Made by a program: the position numbers and the translations under genes
Origin: Escherichia coli
GTDB taxonomy: Bacteria; Pseudomonadota; Gammaproteobacteria; Enterobacterales; Enterobacteriaceae
NCBI RefSeq assembly: GCF_046105845.1
Contig: NZ_CP151004.1
DNA: 64,000 nt
Strand: one strand, 5' to 3'
Part shown: one piece after another, positions 1 to 39,710 of the stretch
Position numbering within the stretch: the first letter of the stretch is position 1
How the letters are laid out: each line of letters starts with the position of its first letter
The notes under the pieces: model-generated
What the model was told of the DNA's origin: nothing
Database searches by the model: none
Seen by the model: only the letters and a program-made list of their open reading frames with translations

Positions 1-153
1 CAATGCTGTTTGGGCAATGGCTGGAACAGAAAGAGATCCCGGATCCCTATCGTAAAAGTCAGGACGCATTTGAACATGTCTACGGTATGTTGGAGCGCGC
101 CAGTCAGGAATGGGCGAAGCGCCTCAGCCGGTAATTTGAGTTTATAAAATACG

Positions 154-2334
154 ATGACAACTAAAAATATGAATACGCCACCAGGCAGCACTCAGGAAAA
201 TGAGATCGATCTGCTTCGTCTGGTCGGCGAGTTATGGGATCACCGTAAGTTTATTATCAGCGTGACCGCGTTGTTCACGCTGATCGCTGTCGCTTACTCG
301 CTGTTAAGCACGCCAATTTATCAGGCAGATACTCTGGTCCAGGTTGAGCAGAAACAGGGCAACGCCATTCTCAGCGGCCTGAGCGATATGATCCCTAACT
401 CATCGCCCGAGTCAGCACCGGAGATCCAACTGCTGCAATCGCGCATGATTCTCGGTAAAACCATTGCTGAACTGAATCTGCGCGACATAGTTGAGCAAAA
501 GTATTTTCCGATTGTGGGTCGCGGCTGGGCGAGATTAACCAAAGAGAAACCAGGTGAGCTGGCGATCAGCTGGATGCACATCCCACAACTGAATGGTCAG
601 GATCAGCAACTGACACTCACGGTTGGGGAAAACGGCCACTATACGCTGGAAGGTGAAGAGTTCACCGTCAATGGTATGGTCGGTCAGCGTCTGGAAAAAG
701 ATGGCGTTGCGCTGACTATCGCGGACATTAAGGCCAAACCAGGAACACAGTTTGTCCTGAGCCAGCGTACCGAACTGGAAGCGATTAACGCGTTGCAGGA
801 AACCTTTACCGTTAGCGAACGCAGTAAAGAAAGCGGGATGCTGGAACTTACCATGACCGGTGATGATCCCCAGTTGATTACCCGTATTCTGAACAGCATC
901 GCTAACAACTATTTGCAACAGAATATCGCTCGCCAGGCGGCGCAGGATTCACAAAGCCTTGAATTCTTACAGCGCCAGTTGCCTGAAGTGCGCAGCGAGC
1001 TGGACCAGGCGGAAGAAAAACTCAATGTTTATCGCCAGCAGCGCGATTCGGTTGACCTTAACCTGGAAGCCAAAGCCGTTCTTGAGCAGATTGTGAACGT
1101 TGATAATCAACTCAATGAGCTGACTTTCCGCGAGGCAGAGATCTCCCAGCTGTATAAGAAAGATCACCCAACTTATCGTGCGCTGCTGGAAAAACGCCAG
1201 ACGCTGGAGCAAGAACGCAAACGCCTGAATAAGCGGGTATCGGCAATGCCTTCCACCCAACAGGAAGTGTTGCGTTTAAGTCGTGACGTAGAAGCGGGCC
1301 GTGCGGTATATCTGCAATTACTTAACCGCCAGCAGGAGTTGAGTATTTCGAAATCCAGTGCGATTGGTAACGTGCGGATTATCGACCCGGCAGTCACTCA
1401 GCCGCAGCCAGTGAAACCGAAAAAAGCGTTGAATGTGGTGCTTGGTTTTATTCTTGGCCTGTTTATTTCGGTGGGTGCCGTGCTGGCGCGTGCGATGTTG
1501 CGTCGTGGTGTAGAAGCCCCGGAACAACTGGAAGAGCACGGCATCAGCGTTTATGCCACTATCCCGATGTCCGAGTGGCTGGATAAACGTACCCGTCTGC
1601 GTAAGAAAAATTTATTTTCTAATCAGCAGCGCCATCGTACTAAAAATATCCCCTTCCTGGCGGTGGATAACCCGGCGGATTCTGCTGTGGAAGCCGTACG
1701 TGCGCTACGAACCAGTCTGCACTTCGCTATGATGGAGACAGAGAATAACATTCTGATGATCACCGGTGCGACGCCAGACAGTGGTAAAACGTTCGTCAGT
1801 TCAACTCTGGCAGCGGTGATCGCCCAGTCCGATCAAAAAGTGTTATTTATTGATGCCGACTTACGCCGTGGTTATTCGCATAACCTGTTTACCGTGAGTA
1901 ATGAACATGGCTTGTCGGAATATCTGGCAGGTAAAGATGAGCTCAACAAAGTGATCCAGCATTTTGGCAAAGGAGGCTTTGATGTGATTACTCGCGGTCA
2001 GGTGCCACCTAACCCGTCTGAACTGCTGATGCGCGATCGGATGCGTCAATTACTGGAATGGGCGAACGACCATTACGATCTGGTGATTGTCGATACGCCG
2101 CCGATGCTGGCGGTGAGCGATGCTGCGGTCGTAGGGCGCTCTGTCGGCACCAGCCTGCTGGTTGCGCGTTTTGGCTTGAACACCGCCAAAGAGGTGAGCT
2201 TGTCAATGCAGCGTCTGGAACAGGCTGGCGTCAATATTAAAGGCGCAATCCTCAATGGTGTGATTAAACGCGCCAGCACCGCTTACAGTTACGGCTATAA
2301 CTATTACGGTTATAGTTACTCCGACAAAGAGTAA
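154..2334 (+). CDS. etk: Tyrosine-protein kinase Etk (Wzc-family BY-kinase, cryptic group 4 capsule locus)
   Basis: 726-aa ORF; Walker A GATPDSGKT; C-terminal tyrosine cluster YSYGYNYYGYSYS; recognised as E. coli Etk, same length as K-12. Confidence 0.95.
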   Translation: MTTKNMNTPPGSTQENEIDLLRLVGELWDHRKFIISVTALFTLIAVAYSLLSTPIYQADTLVQVEQKQGNAILSGLSDMIPNSSPESAPEIQLLQSRMILGKTIAELNLRDIVEQKYFPIVGRGWARLTKEKPGELAISWMHIPQLNGQDQQLTLTVGENGHYTLEGEEFTVNGMVGQRLEKDGVALTIADIKAKPGTQFVLSQRTELEAINALQETFTVSERSKESGMLELTMTGDDPQLITRILNSIANNYLQQNIARQAAQDSQSLEFLQRQLPEVRSELDQAEEKLNVYRQQRDSVDLNLEAKAVLEQIVNVDNQLNELTFREAEISQLYKKDHPTYRALLEKRQTLEQERKRLNKRVSAMPSTQQEVLRLSRDVEAGRAVYLQLLNRQQELSISKSSAIGNVRIIDPAVTQPQPVKPKKALNVVLGFILGLFISVGAVLARAMLRRGVEAPEQLEEHGISVYATIPMSEWLDKRTRLRKKNLFSNQQRHRTKNIPFLAVDNPADSAVEAVRALRTSLHFAMMETENNILMITGATPDSGKTFVSSTLAAVIAQSDQKVLFIDADLRRGYSHNLFTVSNEHGLSEYLAGKDELNKVIQHFGKGGFDVITRGQVPPNPSELLMRDRMRQLLEWANDHYDLVIVDTPPMLAVSDAAVVGRSVGTSLLVARFGLNTAKEVSLSMQRLEQAGVNIKGAILNGVIKRASTAYSYGYNYYGYSYSDKE

Positions 2335-2350
2335 AACTGAAGGTAAAGTG

Positions 2351-2384
2351 ACCGGATGCGGCGTGAACGCCTTTTCCGGCCTAC
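2351..2384. repeat. REP (repetitive extragenic palindromic) element
   Basis: ACCGGATGCGGCGTGAACGCCTTTTCCGGCCTAC matches the E. coli REP consensus GCCGGATGCGGCGTGAACGCCTTATCCGGCCTAC; lies between convergent etk and appA. Confidence 0.7.
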
Positions 2385-2417
2385 GCATCAGACAGTTCTT
2401 CGTTTGTCATCAGCTTC

Positions 2418-2449
2418 AGAGCATTCAGGTAACTGAATGCTCTTTTTTA
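2418..2449 (+). terminator. Rho-independent terminator downstream of etk
   Basis: Inverted repeat AGAGCATTCAG-gtaa-CTGAATGCTCT followed by TTTTTT. Confidence 0.65.
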
Positions 2450-2453
2450 TGCA

Positions 2454-3752
2454 TTACAAACTGCACGCCGGTATGCGTGCTTCATTCACGATTTGCGTAA
2501 AACTGGCCAACGAACACATGCCCTGCGCATTTCGCTCTTCACATCCTGCCAGGGTCAGTTTCACCTCTCCGGGCGGCGTATTTAATGATAGCGGCGTTTT
2601 ATCACGCATCTGCTGTAAAGTCTGGAAGACCAGCGAAACCTGAATCCAATGGCTGTTATCGCTTAGCCTACGCCAGCGTTCAAACACCAGTTCACCCCCT
2701 GGCGGTGTGTTATCCGGCTGACCTGGAAGCGTCCAGTTGAGCTCCAGTGCGCCGCCGAGATTTGCCAGATTAGTATCGTGTCCGGCGATAAACAGCACTG
2801 AAGTGGGTAATGTCACACCATACGCCTGTTTTTGCGGTGGATGGGGCGTCAACGCTGTCATGATCAAATCCAACAACGGGGTGGCGCGGCTGCGGGCAAC
2901 CTCTGGCGTGCGTTGTAGTAAATAAAATTGCGCGTTATGCAAACTTAGCAACGTGTTCCACTGGTGTGAATCAGTGATCCTTCCCCACCCCGGCTCCGGC
3001 ATTCCCTGTGCTTGTTGCAGGAGAAATATTTCCGTCAGCATTGATGCGAGGCTTACCGCACCGGTTAATGAGACATTGTCGGCGCTCACCTTGAGTTCCG
3101 ATGGTAATGCCTGCGTTAATGAACAGCTTTCGTCCTGTTTCTCACGGTTAAGGCACAAGTTTGATTGTGGAAAATTAAGCACCTGTTCCAGTTCGCGAAA
3201 CGCCGTTTGTCGATGCCCGGTAAAGTCAGCAATTGACCCTCCTGCCCTGCTGAGGATCGCGTCAGTCACATTCGCGTTATCCAGTTGGCAAACGCCAGTT
3301 TTTAGAGGATTAAATAACGGATCGGGACTGGACGTATCTGCCTGGGTATGTATGGTTATTGCACAGTCAGGTGCCAGCCCGGCGGCGAAGGCTTCGCCTG
3401 TTTTACGGGTACGCTCGTCGACATCAGCAATAATCGCGACCTGACCAGGCTGCGGGCAGCCCTTTTTCGCCAGCAATCCGTCAGCCACCAGACGCTGGCG
3501 TTGGTAATGTCCGAGATAAGCGATTAGCTCACCACCGCGCGGTGTCAGCCACCCCAGTTTTACCGGCCATGTTGGCCATGCGTCTGAGGTGACATCCTGC
3601 ATCAGTTGCGTGGCCTTGGTTGGGGCACGCACACCATGACGACTGACAATCACCACACTTTCCAGCTTCAGCTCCGGCTCACTCTGAGCGAATGCAGATT
3701 GCGGGGTGAACGGAATCAGAAGAGATAAGAATGGGATCAAGATCGCTTTCAT
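2454..3752 (-). CDS. appA: Periplasmic pH 2.5 acid phosphatase / phytase AppA
   Basis: ORF trimmed to MKAILIPFLSLLIPLTPQSAFA signal peptide (432 aa); histidine acid phosphatase motif RHGVRAP; recognised as AppA. Confidence 0.95.
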   Translation of the reverse strand: MKAILIPFLSLLIPFTPQSAFAQSEPELKLESVVIVSRHGVRAPTKATQLMQDVTSDAWPTWPVKLGWLTPRGGELIAYLGHYQRQRLVADGLLAKKGCPQPGQVAIIADVDERTRKTGEAFAAGLAPDCAITIHTQADTSSPDPLFNPLKTGVCQLDNANVTDAILSRAGGSIADFTGHRQTAFRELEQVLNFPQSNLCLNREKQDESCSLTQALPSELKVSADNVSLTGAVSLASMLTEIFLLQQAQGMPEPGWGRITDSHQWNTLLSLHNAQFYLLQRTPEVARSRATPLLDLIMTALTPHPPQKQAYGVTLPTSVLFIAGHDTNLANLGGALELNWTLPGQPDNTPPGGELVFERWRRLSDNSHWIQVSLVFQTLQQMRDKTPLSLNTPPGEVKLTLAGCEERNAQGMCSLASFTQIVNEARIPACSL

Positions 3753-3831
3753 CGATATGTTTCCGCTTTTCATATCCGACATTATTGATTGCCTGATGCG
3801 ACGCTAATGCGCCGCATCAGGCTTACGTTCG

Positions 3832-3924
3832 TTAACTTTTCAGACGCGGGTCCAGCCATACCAACACAAGGGTGGAGAGCGAACACATCAACAAAATGCC
3901 GACGAACCAAAGTAAATACCACAT
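3832..3924 (-). CDS. appX: Small membrane protein AppX (cytochrome bd-II accessory subunit, CydX paralogue)
   Basis: 30-codon ORF MWYLLWFVGILLMCSLSTLVLVWLDPRLKS read from the minus strand between appB and appA; absent from ORF track because below its size cut-off. Confidence 0.8.
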   Translation of the reverse strand: MWYLLWFVGILLMCSLSTLVLVWLDPRLKS

Positions 3925-3936
3925 TGTTCCTGCTCC

Positions 3937-5073
3937 TTAGTACAACTCGTTTTCGTTACGGCGGAGAGTTTCTGTTGTCATGCGCCCCCACATTTTGTAG
4001 TAGCTCCAGAGAGTGTAGAGCAACACAATGGGCAAAAATATCAGCACGATTACCAACATAATGCTCAGCGTCAGCTGACTGGAAGTACTGTCCCACAACG
4101 TCAGGCTGGAGATCGGACTCACGCTTGACGGCATGACAAAGGGGAACAGCGTGATGCCTGCCGTGAAAATCACGCCAAATTGCATCAATGACGCCATCAA
4201 AAATCCCCAACCCGGGCGACCACGATAAATCGCCATCACCGTCAGCAATGGGCAGAAGAACCCCAGCAGCGGGAAGATCCACAAAACGGGCGACTCGACA
4301 AAATTATTCATCCAGGCACCAGGTAGCACTGCCACCAGTTTCATTAACGGATTGGAAGGACCGTTAGCATCCTGGGCGAGCAGTACAAAGCCATCAATAC
4401 CGACCCACAGCCAGTAACCCGCCAGCAAAAAGCAGAGCATCACCAGCAGTGCGGCGCGTTTGGTCGCCAGCTGTGAACGCAGATGAATCGCACCAACAGT
4501 TTTTAGTTGTAACCAGACGCCACCTTGCAAAATCACCATCCCAAGGCTGAGCAATCCGCACAATAAAGGGAATGGCGTCAGCAGTTGCCAAAAGCTGCCG
4601 AGATACTCCACGCGTAATTGCGGTGTAAAGGCAAACGGCACGCCGAGCAACAAGTTGCCGAAGGCGATACCGAAGACTACCGGCGGCACCAGACTGCCGA
4701 TGACCAGACCGGCATCCCACATTTTACGCCAGCGTGCATCGGCAATTTTTCCGCGATAATCAAAGGCCAGCGGGCGAAAGAACAGCGAGCACAGCACCAG
4801 GATCATCGCCACATAAAAGCCGGAAAACGCCGCTGCATACACTCTGGGCCAGGCGGCAAATAATGCCCCACCTGCGAGGATCAACCAGACCTGATTGCCT
4901 TCCCAGTGCGCACCAACACTATTAATCACTATCCGGCGTTCATCATCATCACGCGCCACCAGCGGCAGCAAACAGCCAATCCCCATGTCAAATCCGTCGG
5001 AGATCATAAAGACCACCAGGATCACGCCAATCAGCAGCCACCAGATGAAGCGCAATGTTTCATAATCAAACAT
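3937..5073 (-). CDS. appB: Cytochrome bd-II ubiquinol oxidase subunit II
   Basis: 378-aa polytopic membrane protein; recognised as AppB/CbdB; 11 nt downstream of appC. Confidence 0.95.
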
Positions 5074-5084
5074 GATTTTCTCCT

Positions 5085-6629
5085 TTACCCCTGTTGCTGC
5101 GTCGGTTGTTCACTCTGCATCGCGCTCGGCCCCAGACGGGCATATTTCTGCATCAGGTAGACTTCGGCGATTAAGAACAGGGTGTAAAGCCCTACGATCA
5201 TGATCAGTGAGAAAGCCAGTTGTCCTGTGGTTAAGGCGGAGTGCGCGGAGTATGTCGGTAAGATGTCCTGTATCGCCCACGGCTGACGACCAAACTCGGT
5301 CATAAACCACCCGGCTTCAATCGCAATCCACGGCAGCGGCAAACTCCAGAGCGCCATTTTCAGCACCCAGCGATGCTGGTCGATTTTGCCACGCAGCGTC
5401 TGGACAAGCGCAATAAGCATCACCAGTAGCAGCAGAGAACCACAGCCCACCATGATGCGGAAACTCCAGAATACCGGCGCAACCTGAGGTATCGCACCAC
5501 GCATCGCCGCCTGGTACTGTGCAGCTGTGACATGGTTCATATCCGGCGCATAGCGGGAGAGCAACATGCCGTAACCAAGGTCGCCTTCCAGCTCCCGGAA
5601 TGCCTGCAACACATGCGGCTCTCGATTGCCTTGCGATATTTCCTGCATTAACAGCCAGGCCATACGTCCGCGTTGCAAGCGTGGGTAGGTTTCAGCCATC
5701 AAATTCTTCAGACCCGGCACGGGTTTATCTAATGAGTGAGTGGCGAGGATCCCTAGCAGCGCGGGAATTTTGATGGCAAAGGCGTTACGCTCTTGATCCT
5801 GTTCCGGCCAGGCAACCACATGGAACGGTGCAGGTGCAGGTTCCGTTTGCCACTCCCCTTCCATCGCCGCCAGTTTTACCGGTTGTACTTGCGCGACTTC
5901 ATACGCCGAACTGTCTCCGAGTTGCAGCGTACCGATAATCGCCAGAGTACCGAAGACGGAACCGATGGCAAACGAGCGTAATGCAACATCGCGCTCCCGT
6001 CCGCGCAGTAAATACCAGGCGCTGATCGCCATAATAAACATGGCCCCGGTCACGTAGCCCGCCATTACGGTGTGTACAAATTTCACCTGGCTGACCGGGT
6101 TAAAGACCAGCTCGCTGAAGCTGGTCATTTCCATGCGCAGGGTGTCGATATCAAAATGCGCACCGGTCGGGTATTGCATCCAACCGTTGGCATTCAATAT
6201 CCACAACGCAGAGAGATTTGAACCGAACGCCACCAGCCACGTCACCAGCAGGTGCTGGTATTTATTCAGCCGCTGCCAGCCGAAGAAGAACAGCCCGACA
6301 AAGGTGGATTCGAGGAAGAAGGCCATTAATGCTTCCATCGCCAGCGGTGCGCCAAAAATATCGCCCACATAGTTGGAATAGAATGACCAGTTAGTACCAA
6401 ACTGAAACTCCATGGTCAGGCCGGTAGCCACGCCAAGAGCAAAGTTGATACCGAAGAGCTTACCCCAGAAGCGCGTCATATCGCGGTAGATTGTTTTGCC
6501 GGTGACCACGTAAATGGTTTCCATGATAGCCAGCAAAAAAATCAGCCCCAGGGTAAGGGGTACAAATAAAAAGTGATACAGCGCGGTCAGAGCAAACTGC
6601 CAGCGCGATAAATCAATGACATCCCACAT
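5085..6629 (-). CDS. appC: Cytochrome bd-II ubiquinol oxidase subunit I
   Basis: ORF trimmed to [12 protein letters not shown] (514 aa); CydA-family; recognised as AppC/CbdA. Confidence 0.93.
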
Positions 6630-6762
6630 GCGCACTCCTGTAGGCGAAGAGAGAAAAATAACCCGTTAATGGTAGATCTCCCTCTTTATCCTGAAACTCT
6701 ACGACCAGAGGTATTCGCCGATTGCGATATTCATAAGCCTGAAAGCGATACTTACCGTCTTT

Positions 6763-7620
6763 TTACGTCGGTGCACCTTCCGCCAGCCACTGGCATACCT
6801 CGCTAAGCCGCTGCGCAGAGTCGACCAAATCTTCTGGCGCTGCCAGCACCACTTCCGGTATTGGGCAGATTTCATAACTTTCCATTAACGGGCCTTTTAA
6901 GGTGTCCGTACAGCGTAAATGCCAGACATGGCGTAACCCCGTGGCGTTGATATAGCTCTCGCCATAGCCAATGGTACGAATCTGAATATTTCCCGGCCCA
7001 CAGAGACGTGAGAGAAAAAGCCGGTCAGCTTCGCTGATGGGCAATTGCGTCAGATTAATGCTGTGCGGCTGCGCGTCGGGGTTACGTACATGTGCCAGTA
7101 ATTCATGGGCCAACGGTAGGCCATTCATCAGGCCATCAATGGGCGGCGGTAACAGCGAATCTGTCGGCAAGACGTTTTGCGTTGCCGCCTGCCACAATGC
7201 CAGCGGCGCGCAGCCAGCCTCCAGTTTGTCTTCCAGCAACTGTTCGCCGTGACGTCTGCGTACCCGCCATAATCCGCAGAAGATCGCCTCCTGAATTTCA
7301 CTTTCACTACCATCAGCCTGCTGAATGCGCACTGACACTTCCCCTTCCCCGAGAAGCGTATTGATAAAGTGACGATCGTCGGCGTTGAGATTTAACAGAT
7401 CGACTGCCAGTACCTCGCCCAGCGGCGGCTGGCGCTCGCTTAGTTGATGTTGTAACTCGTTTAATAGCGCAATCACCTGCGGGCTGTGAGCACATTGCTC
7501 CAGGGCCGCCATACTCGGTTCATCATTCACCTGACAGGTGATCGGCAGTGGATTCATGCTGAAACTGTCATCGTTCGGTTGCGTTCCTGGCCCCAGCAGA
7601 TGGAAAAAAGTTTCGCTCAT
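6763..7620 (-). CDS. hyaF: Hydrogenase-1 operon protein HyaF (HupH/HypC-like maturation factor)
   Basis: ORF trimmed to [12 protein letters not shown] (285 aa); start overlaps hyaE stop by 4 nt. Confidence 0.9.
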
Positions 7621-8015
7621 GAGGCACGCTCCTGCTGCGGTTCGACAAGCCCGCGCATCAGGTTTATCAGTTCCGCCCACGGGTGAATACCATTCAGCAC
7701 GCCGCGATAGTTTCCGCCGGTAAATACTAATGTGGCGGGAAAGCGAAAGACGCCAAAGCGATCGCCGATGGCTTCGCTTTGCTCAAGGTCAGCAATCGCC
7801 ACCTGCCATGTGTAGTCGGGAAACTCGCGCAGTAATTCGCCAATCATTACCGGATTATCGCTGACCTCTGGCGTGCGTTTCGGGTCACTGCTTAATAACA
7901 CCACGCCGTCTGGCGCTTGCGTAAGCCAGTCGTCAAGACGGGATTCACTGACCGGCGTCCAGCCACGCGCCAGCATTCGTTGCCACAACGCATCAAATGG
8001 CGTGTCGTTGTTCAT
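7617..8015 (-). CDS. hyaE: Hydrogenase-1 operon protein HyaE (Tat-signal chaperone)
   Basis: 132-aa ORF; 4-nt overlap with hyaD and hyaF. Confidence 0.93.
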
Positions 8016-8599
8016 CTCTGCTCCTCCAGCGTCATCCGGTACTGGCGCAAGCGAACGCCTTCGTAATTTTCCATCGACAGACAGTCATAATTGAGACAGC
8101 GCGATTCATTAGCCGGTTGCGGCACAATTCCCCACGCAGCCAGCTGCGCCAGCGCCGCCTGTTCCGCGACGGGCAGTTGCTCCCGCGCCAGTTCGCTCAG
8201 GCTGCCGCCGTAGTCGTCGAGCATCGCGGGTTGCAGACCGACGAGGGCAATATGTGCTGGCAGATGTCCGCGGATATCTGCCAGCGCCAGCACTTCGGAG
8301 AAGCTGTTCTGGTGCAGACTCATTTTCTTCGCGCTGAGATAAGCCGGAATGCGTTCTCCGGCATATGTTCGCAGCGTTCCGGGTTCCAGCCCGTAATCAA
8401 TGGCATCGAGGATCAACAAGTGACTGGCGCTTTCGACATACCCCAGCAAGTTCAGTCCCTGAGTACCGCCATCGACAATCTCGACTTCATCGGGCCAGTG
8501 GTAATGGGCATACAACCGTTCCGCCACCCGCACGCCGAAGCCTTCATCGGCCCACAGCAGGTTGCCCAGCCCCATTACCACCACGCGTTGCTCGCTCAT
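8012..8599 (-). CDS. hyaD: Hydrogenase-1 maturation endopeptidase HyaD
   Basis: 195-aa [25 protein letters not shown], HybD/HycI protease family. Confidence 0.95.
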
Positions 8600-9303
8600 G
8601 AACGCTCCTTGTTACTTATTTTGCCAAATTTGTGGCTACGGTAGCCGTTGACCATAGTGGAGATCACCGTGTCGTCGGACATGATGTCTTCACGCAGCGC
8701 CATGTAGACATGACCGATCACAAACGCGCCAATCAGCCACATCCCCAGCCGATGCCAGCTGTGAATGTCCATTGAGTTGCCGCCCGTCCAGTAGAAAAAT
8801 TCCACCACATAACGGAACGGCGCAAAAATAGCGTACTGGCTGTGTTCGCTGTACAGCGCAAAGCCGGTGATGATCATAAAAACTGACATCAGGAAATAGC
8901 CGAACATCGCCGCCTGTGCGATGGGGTTATGGCCTATATCGGCACTCGGACGTTTTGCCAGAAACAGATACCAGCGGATTTCATACCACACGCCCTGCCA
9001 CCAGCTTTTACGCCATACCGGCACGATAAACAGCTCGCGGGAGTAGCGATTGCCGACAAAAGCCCAGTAGATCCGCATCAGCAAGACCACGGTAAAAACC
9101 ATCCCGGCGCTGAAGTGAATCAACCTGATATAGCCCATGTAAAACAGATACGTCGCCTCGCCGCTGACGGAAGGTAGCGGCTTGCCGATAAAGTATCCGG
9201 TGACCATCAACACCGCCATGCATAACACCGTCAGCCAGTGCCAGATACGCACTGGCGCTTCAAAGACATAGTGGCTGACAACGTTGTCGCTTTTCTGTTG
9301 CAT
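8596..9303 (-). CDS. hyaC: Hydrogenase-1 b-type cytochrome subunit HyaC
   Basis: 235-aa membrane protein; recognised as HyaC. Confidence 0.95.
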
Positions 9304-9321
9304 GATGATTCTCCTTCGCTG

Positions 9322-11115
9322 TTAACGCACCTGCACGGAGATAAGCTCGCTACCGTCGTCGCCCAGCACATGTGTTGAACAGGCGAGGCACGGATCAAAG
9401 CTGTGCAGAGTACGCAGGATCTCCAACGGTTGCTCAGGGATCGCCATTTTGGTGTTCATCAGCGCCGCTTCATAAGCGCCAATCTGCCCTTTGGGATCGC
9501 GCGGGCTGGCGTTCCAGGTGGTCGGCACCACGCACTGGTAGAGATCAATCTTGCCATCGCGAATGGCGGCCCAGTGGCCTAACGCCCCGCGCGGCGCTTC
9601 GGTAAAGCCGACACCACGGCACTCTGTCGGCCAGGTTGCAGGTTCCCATTTTTCAGTGGAGGCGGTGGCAAGATTGCCGTTTTTCAGGTTGGTCATCAGC
9701 TTGTCGAAGAAATACTGCAACTTACCTGCGGCCCACTGCGCTTCGTGCGCGCGGCACAAAATGCGGCCCAACGTTGACTGGATGCCGGAAAGTGGCAGGT
9801 TCAACGCCGACATCATGCGATCGACCGACTCAACGGTCGCCGCATCGCCTTTGTGATAAGCGATTAACGTGCGTGCCAGCGGCCCCACTTCCATCGCGTT
9901 ACCGCGCCAGCGTGGCGCTTTGATCCACGAGTAGCGTTCCTGTTCATTCAGCTGCTGAATGTTGGTATCGCTGCCTTTGACATCGCCGGGGTTGTACCAC
10001 GGGTCGGTGATGCCATCGAACGGATGACGCCCAACCTGATCGTTGGGATAACGATACCAGGCGTGATCGACAAACTCCTGCACCTGCTGCGGATCAACCA
10101 AATCCACTGGCAGCACATTGTTGAAGTCGCCGTTAATCACCACGCCGCCAGGCATCAGCAGACTTTTCTCGCCAAAGTCGTTGGCGATATCCGGGAACGC
10201 GCCGTAACTGAGAACGCATTTATCCGAAAGGCCAGTGCCGATTTCGCTCCACGGTTTGTTGAACTGACCAATGGCTAAGGCGTCGGGGATCATCACGTTG
10301 TTAATGAAATCCGCCGTGCGGGTGATAATCGACTGCACCAGGTTCAGGCGTTCCATATTGACCGCCCCGACCGCGCCGCTTTCGTCAATGTTAATGGCGC
10401 AAGGCATCCCGCCGACAATCCAGTTTGGATGCGGGTTTTTACCGCCAAAGACCGCGTGGATTTTGACAATTTCACGCTGGAAATCGAGAGCTTCGAGATA
10501 GTGGGCAAAGCCCATCAGGTTGGCTTCTGGCGGCAGTTTGTACTGCGGGTGCCCCCAGTAGCCATTGCGGAAGATCCCCAACTGCCCACCTTCAACGAAT
10601 TTCTTCAGGCGGTTTTGTACGTCGAAGAAATAGCCAGGGGATGATTTCGGCCAAGAGGAGAGACTTTGCGCCAGTTCGGAGGTTTTCCGCGGATCGGCTT
10701 TCAGCGCATCTAACACATCGATCCAGTCCATCCCGGCAAGCTGATAGAAGTGCACCAGGTGATCGTGGCACCAGAGCGTTGCCAGCATAATGTTACGGAT
10801 GATATTGGCGTTGTCCGGCACTTTAATACCGATGGCATCTTCGATGGCGTAAACTGAAGCCAGGGCATGTACGCCAGTACAGACGCCGCAGATACGTTCA
10901 ACGAACGCCCACGCATCGCGCGGGTCGCGCCCTTGCAGGATGATCTCCAGCCCGCGAAACATGGTGCCGCAGGAGACGGCATTGGTGATCACATTCTGAT
11001 CGTTAATATTCACTTCGCAGCGCATGTGGCCTTCAATGCGCGTAATCGGGTCGACCACCAGGCGGCGTCCGGCATTATTGATGGTGTATCCCTGAGTTTC
11101 GTACTGAGTGCTCAT
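9322..11115 (-). CDS. hyaB: [NiFe] hydrogenase-1 large subunit HyaB
   Basis: 597 aa; N-terminal RICGVC and C-terminal DPCLACSTH Ni-binding motifs. Confidence 0.97.
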
Positions 11116-38589: not shown

Positions 38590-39600
38590 TCAGATATTGC
38601 TAACGATTTCTTTAATCAAAGGCGGACCTTTAAAAATAAAACCAGAATAAATTTGCACCAGTGAGGCCCCCGCAGCAATCTTTTCACGCGCAGCGATAAC
38701 CGAGTCAATGCCGCCAACACCGATGATCGGTAAGCGACCGTTTAATTCCTGTGACAAGCGGCGAATAATTTCTGTGCTTTTTAACTGAAGCGGACGACCA
38801 CTTAAGCCACCGGTTTGATCACAATTTTTCATTCCCTGAACCAGAGAACGATCGAGCGTGGTATTGGTTGCAATAACGCCATCAATATTATGGCGAACTA
38901 AACTATCGGCAACCTGGATCAATTCTTCTTCAGAAAGATCCGGCGCGATCTTCACTGCGATCGGCACATATTTATGGTGCATCGCTTGCAAATCATTTTG
39001 CTTATTTTTAATCGCGGTTAAGAGATCATCCAGCGCTTCGCCATATTGCAGAGTACGTAATCCCGGTGTATTCGGCGATGAAATATTGATGGCGATATAT
39101 CCCGCATAAGCATAGATTTTTTCCATACAAATCAGATAGTCATCTTTACCCTGCTCCACCGGCGTATCTTTATTTTTGCCGATGTTAATACCCAGGACGC
39201 CATCATAATGGGCTTTTTTTACGTTCTCTACGAGGTTATCAACGCCAAGATTATTAAAGCCCATACGGTTGATCAAACCTTCGGCATCTACCAGACGAAA
39301 GAGACGCGGCTTGTCATTACCTGGCTGTGGACGTGGCGTGACGGTACCGATCTCGATCGATCCAAATCCCATCGCGCCTAACGCGTCAATGCACTCCCCG
39401 TCTTTATCAAGACCGGCTGCCAGACCAAGCGGATTTTTAAACGTCAGGCCCATGCAGTTAACAGGTTTCGCAGGCACTTTCTGCCGCACCAGTGCTTCAA
39501 ACGGCGTTCCTGTAATACGGCGTAATTGCTGAAAAGTAAACTCATGAGCGCGCTCTGGATCGAGCTGGAAAAGGGCTTTACGAACGAAGGGGTAGTACAT
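38590..39600 (-). CDS. pyrD: Dihydroorotate dehydrogenase (quinone)
   Basis: ORF trimmed to [20 protein letters not shown] (336 aa). Confidence 0.95.
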
Positions 39601-39710
39601 GAACTCTCCTGGATTCCCGGTGTGCAAACCGGGGGCGTATTATGTGCGAGTTCGGACCAAAAGGGAATTGACCTGTGGCAAAAAAAGCGCAAACGTTTTC
39701 CGAGCCTGTT

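Follow-up and report, generated by a model that had tools for sequence, protein, structure and literature searches.

Two independent solitary REP elements next to appA in Escherichia coli: the REP89 orthologue inside the appCBXA operon and a second copy in the etk 3' UTR

The region around appA in Escherichia coli carries two REP elements that are genuine copies of the common repeat of this species, and that are independent of each other. The copy between appX and appA (REP2) is the orthologue of REP89 of MG1655 and lies in the appCBXA mRNA, while the copy downstream of etk (REP1) lies in the etk 3' UTR. We assign a probability of about 0.6 to the reading in which REP89 works at the RNA level, as a stabiliser or attenuator within appCBXA, REP1 is a unit of the etk 3' UTR, and the two form no functional pair. 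The coordinates used throughout are those of the window, by which we mean the whole 64,000-nt stretch of E. coli DNA that was analysed, and the features are collected in Table 1.

Table 1. Features of the etk-appA-appX region in the window.
Feature	Position	Strand	Basis or remark
etk (tyrosine-protein kinase) CDS	154..2334	+	ORF list; RefSeq (K-12 and matching E. coli genomes)
etk 3' UTR	2335..2448	+	contains REP1 and the terminator
REP1, solitary Y-type REP unit	2351..2384	+	consensus half-sites, fold, naRNA4 match
Bidirectional terminator hairpin of the convergent etk and appA transcripts	stem 2418..2443, T-run to 2448 (etk strand)	both	
appA (periplasmic acid phosphatase/phytase) CDS, annotated start	2454..3752	-	ORF list; K-12 annotation via alignment
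REP2, REP89 orthologue, solitary Z2-type unit in the appCBXA mRNA	3791..3826	-	
appX/cbdX (cytochrome bd-II accessory subunit, 30 aa)	3832..3924	-	ORF list; annotation
appB	3937..5073	-	annotation
appC	ends at 5085	-	annotation

Both palindromes were found at the positions and with the sequences that the original prediction had given, the first reading ACCGGATGCGGCGTGAACGCCTTTTCCGGCCTAC and the second, over 3791..3822, GCCTGATGCGACGCTAATGCGCCGCATCAGGC, with a tail that extends the REP to 3826. In a half-site scan against the consensus GCCKGATGCG / ATCMGGCCTAC, REP1 showed one mismatch per half-site, in agreement with its earlier description as a canonical REP, and REP2 showed 0 and 1 mismatches. 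The pattern GCCKGATGCGRCGY, which represents the REP 5' arm, matched the window four times when at most one mismatch was allowed, against 0.30 matches expected; none of 100 shuffles reached four, and three of the four matches are arms of REP1 or REP2. The search of the window for REP consensus copies, which had been proposed as a check, returned exactly two elements: the two-half-site scan of the 64 kb recovered just REP1 and REP2, in identical orientation and about 1.4 kb apart, both scoring far better than the shuffle matches, which averaged 0.47 at a loose threshold. These were also the sole two matches in the window to the Rfam family naRNA4, derived from REP325, both under the gathering score. 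A chance origin of the palindromes is thus excluded, and both are genuine copies of the common REP repeat of E. coli.

As with the E. coli REP/BIME units of the Y and Z2 types (Stern 1984; Bachellier/Gilson; Ton-Hoang 2012; consensus in PMC11208160), the two elements are made of REP half-sites arranged as an imperfect palindrome in an extragenic position, with a GTAG/CTAC tail in REP1 and in the K-12 copy of REP2. Unlike the BIME clusters, REP1 and REP89 are single units. Each lies 3' of a gene, REP1 between the convergent etk and appA and REP2 between the tandem appX and appA, and convergent and tandem gene pairs are the two common REP contexts in the literature, which counts 697 REP units in MG1655; 355 REP elements are annotated in that strain. 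REP1 and REP2 are independent solitary copies that fall inside the known REP repertoire, real but ordinary. The RefSeq feature tables carry no REP features, with nothing in the yaaX-yaaA gap. That gap is presumably where the element named REP1 in the MG1655 annotation is located; here, the name REP1 is used for the copy downstream of etk.

REP1 starts 16 nt past the etk stop codon and folds into 5 bp, a 3x3 internal loop and 4 bp, the internal loop being the mismatched bulge conserved in the REP family. The fold has an energy of -15.8 kcal/mol when read on the etk strand, and the opposite strand reaches -19.8. Read on the + strand the element ends with CTAC (2381..2384), and on the - strand it begins with GTAG, GTAG/CTAC being the tetranucleotide that the REP-associated transposase recognises and cleaves. 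The K-12 copy differs from REP1 by three substitutions and has a spacer 5 nt shorter, the distance from the etk stop to REP1 (2335..2350 in the window) being 16 nt here and 11 nt in K-12. In both the window and K-12 the outermost stem pair is broken, each time by a different substitution. A further copy of the REP 5' arm with one mismatch, GTCTGATGCG at 2384..2393 (-), abuts the GTAG of REP1 and could be what is left of a further palindromic unit that was truncated.

The second palindrome, which the original prediction had called REP-like, proved to be more than a look-alike. The supplement of Harris et al. 2026 (bioRxiv 10.64898/2026.03.23.713779) contains, from the MG1655 annotation, the entry 'REP89 Tandem 1040579 1040544 appX appA', and alignment with K-12 maps MG1655 REP89 (1040544..1040579) to window 3790..3825; the second palindrome is therefore a true REP, the orthologue of a catalogued one. 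The MG1655 and window copies have the same orthologous position, length and orientation. The appX-appA spacer is equally long in K-12 and the window, and the 106-column alignment shows three differences between them, of which two fall within the REP. The window copy has, at an inner position of the stem, a G where K-12 has an A, which gives an unbroken 14-bp RNA stem in the window and a C-A mismatch in K-12. The K-12 copy reads ATCAGGCCTAC, the canonical REP tail, whereas the window allele reads ATCAGGCTTAC: here the tail is TTAC, with GTAA on the - strand at 3826..3823, in contrast to the CTAC (GTAG) of K-12, and GTAG is also found in EBJ001 and in loci L006 and L007.

The arms of REP2 (3791..3804 and 3809..3822) include 10 bp of perfect pairing, and each arm of the inverted repeat reaches 14 nt, at 93% complementarity and with a 4-nt loop. 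On the app mRNA strand the stem comprises 14 bp with no bulge and one G-U pair, with a folding energy of -29.5 kcal/mol (z-score -7.9), and is more stable than the fold of the Z2 consensus (-20.5 kcal/mol); on the + strand the hairpin reaches -25.3 kcal/mol (z-score -5.8). REP2 lacks the conserved mismatched bulge of the family, its 3' arm reading CGCATC, which pairs fully with GATGCG and closes the bulge, where the E. coli Z2 consensus has CTTATC. Since the mismatch at the bulge position (pair 20-35) is retained in the orthologues of ST131, L007 and L008, the absence of the bulge looks like a derived closure and not like the mark of another family.

The REP identity of REP89 is confirmed independently by insertions of IS621. 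The natural target of this IS110-family element is the 11-nt REP tail ATCAGGCCTAC, with a CT core (PMC11208160). In strain EC01 an IS621 is present between appA and cbdX, exactly in the ATCAGGC-CT-AC of REP89 and with the CT core at both junctions (...CGCATCAGGC-CT/TGTATT... and ...ACAGTAT-CT/ACGTTCG...), and the O103 strain RM8385 carries an identical insertion. With a 161-nt junction query, IS621 was located in REP89 in 17 genomes, O103 and O111:H11 strains among them, out of the 5426 complete E. coli genomes searched. While the K-12-type REP89 tail matches the IS621 target exactly, the window allele has a TT core and is unoccupied. IS621 spans 1536..2870 in locus L005 and 2501..3830 in locus L017, the insertion point is orthologous to window 3822/3823, and the insertion puts about 1.3 kb between appA and appCBX. 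No app gene names appear in the supplements of the IS621 bridge-RNA paper.

The original prediction was to be given up if the second palindrome were absent from related genomes and had no transcript 3' ends. This refutation falls at its first part, since the palindrome turned out to be near-universal, the 96-nt REP89 region being present at an identity of at least 95% in 5411 of the 5426 complete E. coli genomes, with 0 to 2 stem mismatches in the alleles sampled. Outside E. coli, four further Escherichia lineages, E. whittamii and Escherichia sp. E1V33 among them, likewise have a REP hairpin between appX and appA, with different loops and some altered stem pairs. These non-coli loci came from an AppA search of genome contigs, which gave four informative loci plus one 317-bp contaminant-like contig (L010, NZ_VUJW01000157.1). 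The latter, labelled Nocardioides antri, encodes part of an AppA with 98% identity to that of E. coli and is most likely E. coli contamination of the Nocardioides antri assembly.

In an alignment of ten sequences, 92% of the REP89 stem cells are paired and the mismatches cluster at the bulge position. Three double-sided changes were seen in the stem: C-G to U-A via U-G, U-A to G-C, and G-C to A-U via G-U. The covariation measures of the stem were reached by 15 to 32 of 500 shuffles, and together these comparisons provide modest evidence that a hairpin is maintained at this site. Part of the covariation may reflect the exchange of REP types and not stepwise compensation. We also considered a wobble bias as a sign of selection at the RNA level, with three changes compatible with pairing on the mRNA strand and one with pairing on the antisense strand; this is too weak to support such a claim.

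REP1 has a different distribution. Its region is present in 3835 of the 5426 E. coli genomes, and about 29% of them lack it along with the entire gfc-etk block. ST131 (B2) and the four non-coli Escherichia lineages carry neither gfc-etp-etk nor REP1 nor the terminator; they have one identical junction, in which appA leads directly into the convergent and overlapping cspH. Because this junction is common to ST131 and the outgroups, the capsule block with REP1 resembles an insertion into the remaining E. coli lineages, or else a deletion that was spread by recombination. The corresponding positions are 2335..2463 in the window, 2980..3000 in L003 and about 5290..5320 in L006 to L009. The C-terminus of AppA differs in ST131 and the four outgroups, the ST131 protein being annotated with 436 aa. 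Strain EC12 (L004 2980..4480) has a rearrangement of another kind: appC, appB, appX and REP89 are missing and a 1368-nt 'AppA family phytase' gene adjoins hyaF, a deletion having replaced the 5' end of appA.

The hairpin terminator that had been noted after the first REP is a real one. It consists of a perfect 11-bp stem with a 4-nt loop followed by a T-run, and in K-12 a Term-seq 3' end at 1041921(-), seen in two conditions (Adams et al., PMC7815308 supplement), coincides with the final T of this run, at about window 2448. In addition, the SEnd-seq-derived set reused by Harris et al. 2026 contains a convergent overlap at 1041920..1041954 (entry 76, cbdA:appA:cbdB:cbdX:etk), detected in both log and stationary phase. 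The stem, the T-run and the mapped K-12 3' end identify this hairpin as an intrinsic terminator, and by the SEnd-seq-derived entry it is bidirectional and common to etk and appA. It differs from other SEnd-seq bidirectional terminators of convergent genes in having a U-tract on the etk side only, the appA side having an A-tract before the stem and GAAGC after it. The convergent overlap ends just beyond the hairpin, at about window 2415, and therefore the mature appA mRNA stops about 30 nt short of REP1. By the transcript ends mapped in K-12, REP1 thus belongs to the etk 3' UTR and is outside the mature appA mRNA.

These results bear on the suggestion in the original prediction that REP1 and REP89 jointly bracket appA and function as a single arrangement. 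REP89 is genus-wide, REP1 is tied to the gfc-etk block, and the two are on different transcripts, REP1 lying beyond the end of the appA transcript; they have therefore separate histories. Neither the K-12 transcript ends nor the genome distribution supports REP1 and REP89 as a functional pair that brackets appA.

From its position, its stability and the expression of the neighbouring genes we infer that REP89 may act as a stabiliser or attenuator in its operon. REP89 is an old Z2 unit fixed between appX and appA across Escherichia, whose closed bulge makes an unusually stable hairpin, and in the mechanism that we propose it would be transcribed within the appCBXA mRNA and act as RNA. The hairpin would block 3'-to-5' exonucleases, so that the appCBX segment would outlive appA, and it may also slow or partly terminate the polymerase, keeping read-through into appA somewhat below appCB. 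Since the hairpin base is only 9 nt beyond the appX stop codon, termination of AppX translation could be damped as well. REP1 would be at most a second exonuclease barrier for the etk mRNA. Liang, Rudd and Deutscher are said to have found, in 2015, that REPs within 15 nt of a stop codon, a range that takes in the 9 nt seen here, impede translation termination, and Newbury and colleagues reportedly proposed in 1987, for malE-malF, that a REP inside an operon shields the mRNA ahead of it and lowers expression of the gene that follows.

A close precedent is REP325 of the yjdMN operon, an intra-operon REP between tandem genes with which REP89 can be compared in position, and which is both a stabiliser and a partial Rho-dependent terminator, with a proposed protection of the upstream gene's mRNA and attenuation of the downstream gene (Harris et al. 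2026). REP325 is made of 12 units and has direct experimental support, whereas REP89 is one unit with indirect polarity data. It is plausible that REP89 protects the appCBX mRNA and mildly attenuates the read-through into appA. REPs are known to shield the mRNA upstream of them against 3' exonucleases and to terminate transcription in part, often through Rho. More generally, the ratio of upstream to downstream expression is raised in tandem gene pairs with a REP, although the variance is large and mRNA half-lives are not generally affected by REPs (Harris et al. 2026), and stable stem-loops, REPs included, define and protect 3' ends (PMC6061677).

How do the expression data of the operon fit with this? 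In RNA-seq, the log2 fold changes were -3.29 for appC, -3.19 for appB, -3.04 for appX and -2.83 for appA. The four genes change together, and there is therefore substantial read-through across REP89. Normalised counts per nucleotide were about 3.7 for appC, 2.7 for appB, 1.0 for appX and 1.6 for appA; as appX is below appA, there is no sharp drop across REP89, which counts against attenuation. In RT-qPCR with YdeO, appC was induced 10^2.64 and appA 10^1.72 (PMC4222967). These polarity data fit a mild attenuation or a differential stability, and fit equally a separate basal promoter of appA. An independent appA promoter, reportedly described in the older literature, would likewise account for appA being induced less strongly; a sigma-70 promoter scan of window 2200..4100 found none. 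The Term-seq tables of Adams et al. contain no 3' end at REP89, and none anywhere in the hya-app region from 1031625 to 1041921, so the operon was probably silent in that dataset and the negative result at REP89 is weak.

It is possible, although we consider it rather doubtful, that both REPs are selfish or neutral relics spread by RAYT, tolerated between genes and without measurable influence on how app or etk are expressed. REP1 is dispensable, its region being absent from about 29% of the complete genomes and from the outgroups; the REP89 alleles differ in their stem mismatches, so that a perfect hairpin is not strictly selected for, and the site tolerates the 1.3-kb IS621 in 17 genomes. 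The GTAG required by the transposase has decayed to GTAA in the window strain and in several others, no listed Term-seq 3' end falls on REP89 (in a hya-app region that has none at all), and on genome-wide average mRNA half-lives are unchanged by REPs. However, a strong hairpin persists at the REP89 site across Escherichia despite substitutions, among them the three double-sided changes; its stem, at -29.5 kcal/mol, is well beyond the -20.5 of the family consensus, and appA is less induced than appC.

REP89 might also be a domesticated REP, kept at the appX-appA site since before E. coli split from the other Escherichia because its hairpin sets the AppCBX:AppA ratio and perhaps influences AppX termination, a proposal that we regard as unlikely at present. 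This reading takes in the closed bulge, the extra-stable hairpin, and a tail for transposase and IS621 that has decayed in many lineages. If REP89 were domesticated, wobble or compensatory substitutions preserving the stem on the mRNA strand would be the signature of selection.

REP89 could act, instead, mainly on the + strand, as a protective stem-loop just 5' of a Rho-utilisation site at which antisense transcripts from appA would end. The tables of Harris et al. contain Rho-site regions, with and without NusG, at K-12 1040403..1040527 (minus), which run antisense to cbdB/cbdX at a distance of 17 to 31 nt from REP89 (window 3842..3966 (+)); Rho-dependent 3' ends have been described as a stem-loop with a rut site immediately after it (PMC6061677), and the + strand hairpin is stable too, at -25.3 kcal/mol. 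Even so, we hold this to be very improbable: it is the app mRNA strand that forms the more stable hairpin, neither an antisense 3' end (in the Term-seq tables) nor an antisense promoter (in the sigma-70 scan) was seen at the locus, and the Rho-site tables appear to stem from in vitro selection. Least probable of all, and disfavoured by the present data, is that the REPs insulate appA as a DNA-level pair (by binding gyrase or HU, as a domain boundary or as recombination substrates): the 64 kb hold no other REPs, and the two have appA between them, share one orientation and are separated by about 1.4 kb, but one is genus-wide and the other linked to the gfc-etk indel, REP1 is outside the appA transcript, and Harris et al. 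2026 found neither contacts between REPs on the chromosome nor compaction.

REPs have been known since 1984 and the intra-operon copy was already catalogued as REP89, and in this respect our results have little import beyond correct annotation. REP89 has a modest value as a clean test case for current views of REPs as local 3'-UTR regulators, being single, unusually stable, conserved in the genus and located in a well-studied stress operon. Natural REP89 alleles with differing stem strength are available for this purpose, as are the 17 natural IS621 insertions that split appA from appCBX.

Some other observations were made in the region. An in-frame ATG at 3782 lies 10 codons 5' of the annotated appA start. 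Between this upstream ATG and the annotated start at 3752 there is an inverted repeat, GATATG ... CATATC (3753..3786 (-)), which surrounds the appA ribosome-binding region; its pairing is predicted in E. coli and in L009, and in none of L006 to L008. Over window 2200..4000 the identity with the K-12-derived strains W3110 and MC4100 is 97.3%, and 111 genomes are at least 99% identical to the window over that stretch. For window 1..12000 the top match among the 5426 complete E. coli genomes reaches just 98.3% over the 12 kb, while shorter stretches reach 100% in some strains, indicating that the window is a mosaic or comes from a lineage outside that genome set, possibly Shigella or one represented by draft assemblies alone. 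Elsewhere in the window, the Rfam matches above threshold were a PyrD leader (39595..39668 (-), 97.9 bits) and a tRNA (12656..12740 (+)), neither of them related to REPs.
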